A stretch of DNA of 64,000 nt from Thermoplasmata archaeon (GTDB lineage Archaea; Thermoplasmatota; Thermoplasmata; GCA-020350865). The position numbers and the translations under genes were made by a program. The stretch spans positions 190,006 through 254,005 of the forward strand of contig CP070751.1 of NCBI GenBank assembly GCA_020348445.1, in the 5' to 3' direction. The first letter of the stretch is position 1, and each line of letters opens with the position of its first letter. This document shows, in pieces, positions 32,366 through 34,933 of the stretch. The notes under the pieces were generated by a model. It did not search any database. It saw nothing but the letters and a program-made list of their open reading frames with translations, and was not told where the DNA came from.

Positions 32366-32616
32366 AGGAGGTTAATGGCCATAGGAACTATTCAACGTTT
32401 GGGTAGGGGTTAGGTTAGGAGGGAAAAATAAGAATAATAATTTTTCCGTTGACGCTCCTATAGCCATCTTGCAAGGGGCCCTAATGCGCATTACACTCCC
32501 TTACAACAGATTCTTATTGGGCCATTCCATATATAAGGCTTGGTTGGTAAATACCGTGATTACACCAGATAACCGAGAGAACGTTATTTATTGATTCCAG
32601 CAACCAATTGTATTGC

Positions 32617-33066
32617 TTAGTGAGAAAAAATTATTCTTGATAATAGGAAATATGCGAAAAAACCAATGATTAGTCCGATAAATGCACTAAATATACTTAC
32701 CTGATATCCAATATCCTGGTATTTTCTCCAGTATTCGATTGAAATAAAAAGAGTGTATAGAATCATAATTGTTACAAATAATGTTAGTATTGCAAAACAG
32801 AGAACCAATATTAGATGTTCTTCATTAGATAACTCGGAAGTTCCTGCAGGGCTGAGCATAAATAGTATTCCAATCAATATGTAAATTTGAATTATTAATT
32901 GGGTTATTATTGTTAAATTAAAAGAGCGCAGTTTTTCGTCAGATGAATGAAGAACCTGATAAGGGGGATTTAGATAGGTTTGGGGGAGGTATTTCGCATC
33001 GCCCTCAATGGAACTCTGATCAAAGGATTCCTCATCAATTCTTGACTTTAACTCGTCTTGGGTCAT
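32617..33066 (-). CDS. Hypothetical membrane protein (AT-rich)
   Basis: 149-aa ORF with about 3 hydrophobic segments. Confidence 0.65.
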   Translation of the reverse strand: MTQDELKSRIDEESFDQSSIEGDAKYLPQTYLNPPYQVLHSSDEKLRSFNLTIITQLIIQIYILIGILFMLSPAGTSELSNEEHLILVLCFAILTLFVTIMILYTLFISIEYWRKYQDIGYQVSIFSAFIGLIIGFFAYFLLSRIIFSH

Positions 33067-33096
33067 TTTGGAAATTTCCCCTTTTTTAATTATATA

Positions 33097-33810
33097 TTAT
33101 TTAAATGGACATAAAGGATCGCCTTCGAACTCTGCCACACCAATAATTGTTTGATTATAGGGTAATTTCAAAATTTCGTGTTCCCAATCGCTTCTAATGA
33201 CATCCCCTTCGTCAAGATCAACATGAAAAGTTCCACTATCGACACCAAATGTGTGCAAATGACCATCTATTACATTATCGTGTGGAAAAATCGTAGCTTG
33301 CGATATGTCTGGATCTAAAGAATCGATATGGAATTCAATTGATAAATTAATCCAACGTCCTTTACCTTTGTCTGATCCTTTTACTATTTCATCGTGATTA
33401 GCAATTTTAAGACTTATGGAGTTGCTGTTGTTAAACTCGAATAAATAATCAAACCTTACTGAGTAGTCCAAATCTGGAATTGATAAAACTAAAAAATATG
33501 TTTCATTTGTTACATTCATTCTGCTGTCTGAATCTAGTTTGTAATAAAGTTCATCTAATAATGCATCATCGAGTTGAGCTTCGGAATCGATTGTAAAATA
33601 GAACGATTTAAGGCGAACCCCAGGAAGCATACAGTAATATAACCAAGAAATTAATATAAGAGAAATAATGATAAAAACTATGGCTATTATTATCTCTTTT
33701 TTATACTTTTTTTGATACTCCTGATATTTTTCCTCTGGAGTTTTTATACCTGAGTTTCCTGTGTACTTAAGGATTCCCTTTTTATTTGTCATTTCAGATA
33801 TCCTTCCCAT
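33097..33810 (-). CDS. Hypothetical single-TM membrane-anchored protein (AT-rich)
   Basis: Basic N-terminus, TM IIIAIVFIIISLILISW, acidic soluble domain. Confidence 0.65.
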   Translation of the reverse strand: MGRISEMTNKKGILKYTGNSGIKTPEEKYQEYQKKYKKEIIIAIVFIIISLILISWLYYCMLPGVRLKSFYFTIDSEAQLDDALLDELYYKLDSDSRMNVTNETYFLVLSIPDLDYSVRFDYLFEFNNSNSISLKIANHDEIVKGSDKGKGRWINLSIEFHIDSLDPDISQATIFPHDNVIDGHLHTFGVDSGTFHVDLDEGDVIRSDWEHEILKLPYNQTIIGVAEFEGDPLCPFK

Positions 33811-33890
33811 AAATCATATATTAATACATTCTATTTTTATTTTATCATATTGGTCAGTTACTGCCTAACTGAATAATAAATAAAAGGAGT

Positions 33891-34332
33891 AGCCCCGGGC
33901 CGCAGAAATAAGAGATAATTAGAGTTCCATTATATTTCTAGGTAAGTGGCTAATCTGGATGACAACTTATAAAAGAGGAAGAGTAGCCCCGAGTGGATTC
34001 GAACCACCGTCTCCGGTTCCAAGGACCGGAATGATTGACCAGCTACAACACGGGGCTATTTGATTTGAACTTGTAGAGGCCAAATAGCCCCTAGCACGAG
34101 GAAAAGCGATATCAAAACTGTCTCAATACTTTTCCTCCATGACACGGGGCTTCTATGATTAAATTCTGCTTTATACTAATCCCCTATCAGAAAAAAAAGG
34201 TTATTATGTTATTAAGATTTCTTTTTTTCTACTAAGGGGCTTTATAGCATTATATCGCAACATTCAAATCCCCTTGCAGTAAATAAAGAGTTGGGAGGTT
34301 GCTGCAATTCCTTTTTTTACTACTACGGGGCT
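33891..34332 (-). repeat. Tandem array of four acceptor-stem-closed hairpins with tRNA-Gln in the fourth of five slots
   Basis: Units span 34268-34332, 34179-34241, 34086-34151, the tRNA, and 33891-33951. Each runs AGCC(C/A)C...GGGG(C/A)T on the minus strand with internal complementary arms and a 20-22-nt loop. Linkers are 26-33 nt. Confidence 0.8.
33984..34057 (-). tRNA. tRNA-Gln (anticodon UUG)
   Basis: Acceptor stem AGCCCCG/CGGGGCT with A73; the A1-U72 pair is typical of archaeal tRNA-Gln. Anticodon arm CCGGT-CCTTGGA-ACCGG. T arm GGTGG-TTCGAAT-CCACT. 74 nt, no encoded CCA. Confidence 0.9.
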
Positions 34333-34369: not shown

Positions 34370-34933
34370 TTATTTATTACTCAAAAACTCTGCTAATTGT
34401 CTAAGTGCGATGGCCCTGTGAGAATGTTTGTTCTTCTCCTCAATCTCCATCTCCGCAAATGTCTTTTCCGCACCCTTGGGAATGAATATAGGATCGTATC
34501 CGAATCCATGGTGACCTCGGGGCATAATGGCGATTGTACCATCCACCCGCCCCTTGAAAAACAAAGGCTCTGAACCCTTCTCACAATAAGCGACACAGGA
34601 TTCGAAATACGCACTTCTATCCTCCTTACCTTTCAACAATCTTAATATTCCATCAAATCCAATTGTTACAAAAAAATGTTTTGAAAAAACACCAGGGTAA
34701 TTATTCAAGGCGGAGACAAAAAGCCCTGCGTCCTCTATAATCACTGCCTCTTCGATTTTCTTCTCTTTCATGATCCAATTGATCCCAAAAGAGGCCACCT
34801 CCTCAAGATCCGAGGACTGCAACTCTGGATAAGATATATGCACTTGCTCAATCTCAAATCCTAAAGGCGCAAATAACTTCTGGGTTTCCAACAACTTTCC
34901 GGGATTTGAAGTTCCAAATTGAATTTTTTTCAT
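34370..34933 (-). CDS. rdgB: Non-canonical purine NTP pyrophosphatase (Ham1/RdgB)
   Basis: GTSNPGK, EDAGL, PGVFS, GFGYDPIF, KNKHSHR. Confidence 0.95.
   Translation of the reverse strand: MKKIQFGTSNPGKLLETQKLFAPLGFEIEQVHISYPELQSSDLEEVASFGINWIMKEKKIEEAVIIEDAGLFVSALNNYPGVFSKHFFVTIGFDGILRLLKGKEDRSAYFESCVAYCEKGSEPLFFKGRVDGTIAIMPRGHHGFGYDPIFIPKGAEKTFAEMEIEEKNKHSHRAIALRQLAEFLSNK

Follow-up and report, generated by a model that had tools for sequence, protein, structure and literature searches.

Near the middle of the stretch described here, a single tRNA gene, that for tRNA-Gln(UUG), lies within a series of hairpin-like units whose ends resemble its own acceptor helix, which raises the question of whether these units are RNAs fashioned after a tRNA or the outcome of a process that duplicates DNA at the ends of tRNA genes. 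We addressed this question in the window (the whole stretch of 64,000 nucleotides that was analyzed) and in the genome of its host (G000; 5.16 Mb, a single contig), together with related genomes. We give an even chance to the explanation that the array represents non-coding fold-back repeats, particular to this lineage and clustered locally, which were made from tRNA gene ends. The repeat family to which they belong is apparently undescribed, is confined to one group of Thermoplasmata and builds its units from whichever tRNA end adjoins. The absence of any described family of this kind, suggested earlier from the sequence alone, is borne out by our searches, which gave no match in Rfam 15 and no description in the literature searched; an Rfam 15 scan of the window region and seven other tRNA loci returned only sub-threshold chance hits to mir-239, HPnc0260 and permuted tmRNA.

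The sequence-only reading had placed five units on the minus strand and all five were found as placed; every feature of the array given below lies on that strand. The co-directional upstream neighbor of the array, mentioned for context only, is an rdgB/Ham1 gene (34370..34933; Pfam PF01725, E 3e-50). U1 (34268..34332) is an upstream fold-back unit of a tRNA-Gln-specific subfamily described by model R2 (78.6 bits), and consists of a copy of the flank and first tRNA-Gln bases, A-rich and T-rich arms, a CA-rich loop and an imperfect inverted copy. U2 (34179..34241; R2, 65.8 bits) is an upstream fold-back unit of the same subfamily with A7/T8 arms, and U3 (34086..34151; R2, 59.7 bits) is one with the arms GGAGGAAAAG and CTTTTCCTC. 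The sequence TCAAATAGCCCCGT, reported to be common to U1 and the tRNA, is an exact match (family D8). U3 and the tRNA are separated by a linker (34058..34085) whose ends lengthen an 11-bp, 100% complementary inverted repeat (34052-34062 with 34081-34091; I14), such that the 3' end of U3 plus the flanking ATTTG pairs exactly with CAAAT plus the 5' end of the tRNA. The tRNA-Gln(UUG) gene itself (33983..34057; ARAGORN, start 33983/4; Rfam RF00005, 50.4 bits) is of archaeal type (A1-U72, A73) and is the single tRNA called at the array by ARAGORN and Rfam. We rejected the possibility that the other units are tRNAs or tRNA pseudogenes, as U1–U3 and U5 gave no match even at E values up to 10 and only 33983-34057 scored.

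Behind the tRNA, an AT-rich spacer (33952..33982, which includes CTTTTATAAG) is the equivalent of the conserved spacer of a genome-wide downstream module, and is followed by U5 (33891..33951), a short-armed relative of that module (model R1, only 5.8 bits) comprised of an imperfect inverted copy of the tRNA 3' end, short arms, the core loop of the family and a direct copy of the 3' end. The latter takes in bases of the 3' flank and corresponds to a direct repeat (33880..33899, compare 33974-33993; families D1 and D6) that forms the right-hand border of the U5 module. Downstream of the tRNA, the GC content is as low as 0.30-0.35 (window positions 32400-34000) and two minus-strand ORFs (33097-33810 and 32617-33066) are without a Pfam match.

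The pattern AGCCCC-N40-62-GGGGMT occurs six times in the window (at four places, two of them palindromic) vs. 0.51 times in shuffles, an enrichment of ~12-fold, and none of 100 shuffles of the window reached six occurrences. Folding supported the suggestion that the non-tRNA units are hairpins for U1, U2, and U3, which beat their shuffles (z -3.05, -2.45, and -4.45), but not for U5 (z -0.66). The related suggestion, that the ends of the units reproduce the acceptor helix of the tRNA, held for the CCCC/GGGG pairs but not throughout, as U1 and U2 end in GGGGAT and have base 2 unpaired. An assembly artefact is an unlikely source of the array, because the same units are present at the syntenic tRNA-Gln loci of four other genomes of the genus.

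The design extends beyond tRNA-Gln, as other tRNA genes of the host bear it with their own ends. The 5' 8-mer of the tRNA gene is repeated within 400 nt upstream in 15 of 45 genes (0.3 when permuted), and the 3'-strand 7-mer is repeated within 400 nt downstream in 20 of the 45 (0.86 when permuted). The copied segments also extend past the mature tRNA. The closing helix of U1 runs on into flank bases (I8), and downstream modules start with the complement of the tRNA 3' end together with one or two flank bases. In the G003 orthologue, GTTGG/CCAAC is found where the host has ATTTG/CAAAT beside U3 and the tRNA, i.e., both pentamers differ and still pair. The modules of tRNA-Ala have, in their 5' arm, an A opposite U70 where the tRNA itself has G3 (the G3-U70 wobble), indicating that the arm is the complement of the copied 3' end. 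At tRNA-Gln(CUG) of G003, the inverted copy in the upstream unit tracks the changed 5' strand of the tRNA and not its 3' strand. (This gene, L030:1604-1772, has the ends ACCCCCG...CGGGGCT with a C-C mismatch at 2-71, and the inverted copy, GGGGGT, fits the changed 5' strand perfectly.) As the copies exceed the mature tRNA ends, and as the number of units at one locus varies between three, one and none among related species, we interpret them as duplications of gene ends at the DNA level and not as the designed mimics of an acceptor stem that had been proposed. An origin by reverse flow from mature tRNA was ruled out, as the copies bear gene flank and not CCA.

The upstream units of many other tRNAs in the host genome have in common an inner hairpin, CGTGG-N-CTTCGG-N-CCAC, which could be a recognition motif and is carried at tRNA-Pro(CGG), Thr(UGU), Thr(CGU), Ser(UGA), Ala(GGC), Lys(CUU), Ala(UGC), and Ser. 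In G005, which is of the same order and another family, tRNA genes at L033:1-520 and L085:1-330 are flanked by hairpins closed by copies of tRNA ends, with different inner sequences and tight loops, and family f13 is similar in this respect (L014, L015). An array of ~24 tRNA genes within 3 kb of the host genome (G000:C1:4640570-4643566), which may belong to a mobile element or virus, shows almost no additional copies of its own acceptor 6-mers in flanking sequence.

The array had also been connected with tRNA-Gln identity and GatDE, a connection we do not uphold, since other tRNA genes have the same design and the genome also encodes a GlnRS. At a second locus in the host genome, three more tRNA-Gln genes of two sequence types surround a putative glutamine--tRNA ligase gene (TIGR00440, 755 bits) and are flanked by the same kinds of hairpin. 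The ligase (L034:1126-2826:-, in locus L009:1-8001, i.e., G000:C1:3894000-3902000) is of a bacterial or eukaryote type in an archaeal genome, and its gene lies between tRNA-Gln genes of two types, A73 vs. G73, each with UUG and CUG anticodons. The host genome has two GatB_N/GatE-like frames besides GlnRS, and the combination of these with the two tRNA-Gln types leads us to suggest that direct and indirect formation of Gln-tRNA may coexist, each with its own tRNA. Two further tRNA-Gln genes are of note: a bacterial-type gene (U1-A72; G000:C1:1131962-1132035) after a small ORF that by eye is GroES-like, which could be phage-derived or a contaminant, and a type-II tRNA-Gln(CUG) of G003 (L030:4241-4365) called with a 52-nt intron, the orthologues of which in G000 and G004 have no intron.

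The downstream units share an AT-rich spacer, a 9-bp inner stem and a loop of ~29 nt, and the order of their parts is tRNA 3' end, spacer, inverted copy, core, and direct copy. R1, a model of the inner hairpin of this module, gave 68 matches in the host genome, 44 of them within 600 nt of a tRNA. Among these 44 matches, 42 are downstream of the tRNA and 41 co-oriented with it (41:3), with the first copy starting 33-41 nt past the tRNA gene. The spacer is conserved and has a T-run and a TATA-like box. A CGTG(G) motif precedes the 5' arm of the downstream modules and recurs at the 5' foot of units. The family is present in all five genomes of the genus (25-66 matches each in this comparison) and was absent from all 56 further class genomes searched, one of the same order among them; the exact downstream motif is limited to a few metagenome-assembled genomes assigned to Thermoplasmata or 'Methanomassiliicoccales'. 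A short-armed variant takes in U5, one orphan and two closer copies located behind tRNA-Gln(CUG), and the outer stem of the orphan differs yet is compensated. The loops of this variant, that of U5 included, are alignable to the R1 loop (A3). The loop of U5 is thus the conserved core of a genome-wide family, and the suggestion that the loops of the array are unrelated in sequence does not hold for all of them.

There are 24 orphan R1 matches in the host genome (no tRNA within 600 nt by ARAGORN), all of them intergenic and inconsistent in their orientation to the neighboring genes; an Rfam search that covered 20 of these loci found no tRNA within 400 nt of any of them. One orphan subfamily has short CCCACC direct repeats at its flanks. 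At L121:13880-14180, a T-arm and acceptor 3' strand precede two strong downstream-module copies fitted to this tRNA-like end; the sequence received no tRNA call from ARAGORN or Rfam and may be an intron-rich or split tRNA gene. As at least one orphan cluster trails a tRNA-like 3' end, the count of 24 orphans is an upper bound.

The R2 covariance model identified 15 copies of the upstream subfamily across the five genomes of the genus, every one at a tRNA-Gln gene. U1 shares 80% identity with one of the units at the GlnRS locus, which suggests that U1-like units have been copied between loci. At the rdgB-tRNA-Gln(UUG) locus the upstream units number three in the host, one in G003 (the orthologue of U3, sited between rdgB and tRNA-Gln) and none in G002, the RdgB proteins of the three genomes being 62-66% identical; a downstream unit is present at this locus only in the host (one, vs. 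none in G003). U3 and its G003 orthologue are ~79% identical at an RdgB identity of 62%, which is more conservation than expected of neutral DNA.

Covariation between the arms was confirmed in both families: in the upstream units 89% of cells are paired, with 16 double-sided changes, and in the downstream units 90%, with 91 double-sided changes. The earlier remark that mismatches become G-U pairs on the tRNA strand was likewise correct for the upstream units, in which 24 G-U pairs were counted vs. 11 A-C/C-A and 13 of 14 units are more stable when folded as the tRNA strand (U3 by 7.5 kcal/mol); one U-G pair is kept in 10 of the 15 upstream copies. This bias points to a constraint at the RNA level and makes co-transcription of the upstream units with the tRNA plausible, although transcription-linked deamination could yield the same bias. 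In the downstream family, the pairs of the inner stem are nearly all Watson-Crick (330 Watson-Crick pairs, 3 G-U, and 12 A-C/C-A of 369 cells), which fits a constraint on DNA or copying from arm to arm.

Under the explanation that we favor, namely fold-back repeats made from tRNA gene ends, an upstream unit consists of a direct copy of the 5' flank and the first 8-13 bases of tRNA-Gln, followed by an internal hairpin and then the same end in imperfect inverted copy; in a downstream unit, the AT-rich spacer leads into the tRNA 3' end in inverted orientation, then the conserved core, and lastly the 3' end with its flank in direct orientation. The likeness to an acceptor stem would then be a matter of descent, through duplication of the gene end in DNA, and not of selection for tRNA mimicry. 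Units may have multiplied locally in tandem, and modules may have passed as copies from one tRNA locus to another and been adapted there to the new neighbor, with the complementarity of the arms maintained through within-palindrome correction or, alternatively, through selection favoring a stable hairpin. Their transcription would probably be passive. The linker between U3 and the tRNA contains no TATA-like box, and a TATA-like TAGTATAAAG is situated ~22 nt before U3, from which, given the usual spacing of archaeal promoters, we infer that U3 is probably part of the leader of pre-tRNA-Gln and would be removed by RNase P. The units would bear no guide sequences.

It is feasible, although we rather doubt it, that the units are instead cis-acting parts of the tRNA transcription units. 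Upstream, U-tract hairpins would stop read-through from rdgB and shape the leader, and the terminal helices would either prevent mispairing of leader or trailer with the acceptor strands or present sites to RNase P and tRNase Z; downstream, the module would be a terminator, an insulator or a promoter block. The 3' arms of the upstream units have runs of T4-T8, as befits such hairpins, and both the placing of U3 in the leader by promoter geometry and its conservation between diverged genomes favor a role in cis. Moreover, the co-orientation of the modules with the tRNA (41:3), their fixed spacing, and the conserved spacer with its T-run and TATA-like box could point to a function in tRNA expression, and the preference for the tRNA strand (13/14), the G-U excess (24:11) and the recurring U-G pair point to an RNA-level constraint, all of which weighs against a view of the units as passive repeats. 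However, with zero, one or three units at the same locus in related species no unit can be indispensable, and the family is missing from the rest of the class. The near freedom of the downstream family from G-U pairs also argues against a role in cis, as does the fact that about a third of the downstream copies are intergenic, inconsistent in orientation and without a detectable tRNA nearby (at least one cluster of these trails a tRNA-like end).

We think it unlikely that the units are non-autonomous mobile elements, whether MITE- or REP-like or miniature integrative ones, which a remote recombinase inserts at tRNA ends with duplication of the target. Their multi-copy, intergenic and palindromic nature, restriction to one genus and varying presence between species would all be expected of such elements, as would the att-like direct repeats of the tRNA 3' end at the flanks of the modules, the CCCACC repeats around one orphan subfamily and the recurrence of CGTG(G) at the 5' foot of units. 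Nevertheless, the arms of every copy fit its own tRNA, which one mobile sequence cannot supply, and no module adjoins a Y1 transposase, tyrosine integrase or serine recombinase gene. Our search for an enzyme or mechanism of spread found none, which also counts against the explanation that we favor. The flanks of the five Y1_Tnp matches in the genome contain neither an R1 match nor a matching palindrome. No tyrosine integrase was found beside the modules, and fragments occur only at tRNA-Leu (1864 kb) and tRNA-Met (2412 kb). Housekeeping genes lie between the sole large serine recombinase of the genome and the modules nearest to it. A viral origin of the downstream module was rejected, as the single match in IMG/VR is a chance one in coding-like sequence.

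The integrase fragments mentioned above are C-termini directly beside tRNA-Leu(UAA) and tRNA-Met (G000:C1:1864225-1864380 and 2412539-2412649, respectively). Integration of the SSV type splits the integrase gene and would leave C-terminal fragments beside a tRNA. The serine recombinase (L121:5667-7269) is encoded in two overlapping frames of 309 and 234 aa and may carry a frameshift.

A trans-acting role seems very improbable to us, i.e., that each tRNA is accompanied by expressed cognate hairpins closed by its acceptor helix, which are cut by RNase P and tRNase Z and receive CCA. If true, each tRNA species would have its counterpart in a second, parallel series of acceptor-stem RNAs, serving as decoys or sensors for aminoacyl-tRNA synthetases, tRNA-targeting nucleases or integrases. 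The minihelix form that RNase P or tRNase Z would recognize was rejected, as the ends of U1 and U2 pair over 4 bp only (2-71 being G opposite A); the units have an internal loop after the terminal helix and no T-loop. C/D box and H/ACA sRNAs were also rejected, there being no C/D pair, no ACA box in place and no Rfam snoRNA or sRNA match, as was a CRISPR-like or guide array, in which the repeated parts would be near-identical direct repeats where here they are covarying arms, and the loops show no excess of matches in the genome.

The loops had been proposed to act as guides or antisense sequences, for which we found no support: near matches in the genome (≤3 mismatches) are in no excess over shuffles, the two loops tested in IMG/VR (those of U1 and U3) have no exact match there, and pairing between loops of units that flank one tRNA is no different in kind from that of non-cognate loops (means of -13.6 vs. 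-13.3 kcal/mol). Between U3 and its orthologous unit in a related genome, the loop sequence agrees at about two thirds of positions, and U1-like loops have in common a CA-rich composition and a CCCAAC motif. The proposal of the sequence-only reading as a whole, a polycistronic precursor cut by RNase P and tRNase Z into ~65-nt RNAs with ~21-nt loops as guides, antisense or decoys, is in our view extremely unlikely, for although the hairpins are stable and covary, their terminal helices look like acceptor stems and the upstream units prefer the tRNA strand, the loops show no excess of near matches in the genome and those of U1 and U3 no exact match in IMG/VR, that of U5 is a shared core, orthologous loops are partly conserved and not replaced, U1 and U2 have no 2-71 pair, the helices extend into flanking DNA and many other tRNAs show the same design.

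tRNA genes are classic landing sites of mobile DNA and are among the most conserved of genes. The repeat system of this lineage copies both ends of a tRNA gene into covarying hairpins, re-fits them to each tRNA and is gained and lost from species to species. It points to a previously undescribed route by which DNA is duplicated or inserted at tRNA borders. If the units are transcribed and processed, they would make up a novel class of small RNAs linked to tRNAs. In genome annotation, they account for spurious "tRNA-like" hairpins and partial tRNA matches near tRNA genes in these genomes.

Several known systems resemble the units in part. REP/BIME are extragenic palindromes of bacteria that are mobilized by RAYT (Y1 HUH) transposases, and like the present units they are short imperfect palindromes, multi-copy, intergenic, lineage-specific, often clustered or in tandem, and with a short conserved motif at the foot of the hairpin; the 68 R1 matches, with all 24 non-tRNA ones intergenic, fit this description. 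In contrast to REP/BIME, the outer arms of the present units copy the adjoining tRNA end, most copies are at a fixed distance behind a tRNA, the loop is long (~29 nt) and conserved, and no RAYT-like gene flanked by the repeats was found. With regard to MITEs, inverted arms are present and CCCACC direct repeats flank one orphan subfamily; no parent IS was identified.

The att repeats left by integrating elements are partial tRNA copies (e.g., with SSV-type or pNOB8-type archaeal integrases, or with integrases that cross over in the T-loop), and as in the present modules the 3' part of the tRNA, from the T-loop region to the end and beyond, is directly repeated downstream of the intact gene. However, the DNA between the present repeats is only ~60-100 bp, gene-less and contains an inverted copy of the same end, copies of the 5' end are also found upstream, and no integrase is adjacent. 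RtT RNA (Rfam RF00391) derives from 178-bp repeats in the tyrT operon of E. coli, which are likewise tandem repeats behind a tRNA, each with a copy of the tRNA 3' end; unlike the present family, they are longer, belong to one operon and are neither genome-wide nor re-fitted to each tRNA, and cmscan of the window region and seven other tRNA loci gave no match to RF00391. The tRNA-like processing signals, such as plant mitochondrial t-elements, the tRNA-like element before archaeal 5S rRNA and mascRNA, share with the units acceptor-like helices beside genuine RNA genes that RNase P or tRNase Z could cut. They differ in that the present units have no T-arm-like second helix or T-loop and their helices extend into the flanks.

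Finally, tandem inversion duplications, which arise by snap-back template switching, have been described in Salmonella. Independent local events of this kind would be insufficient to account for the family, since conservation of its spacer and core extends to dozens of unlinked tRNA loci in five species. Even so, these duplications have in common with the present units quasi-palindromic, AT-rich junctions and the direct-inverted-direct order of a short segment, an order that is found here in the downstream modules and, as its mirror image, in the upstream units.
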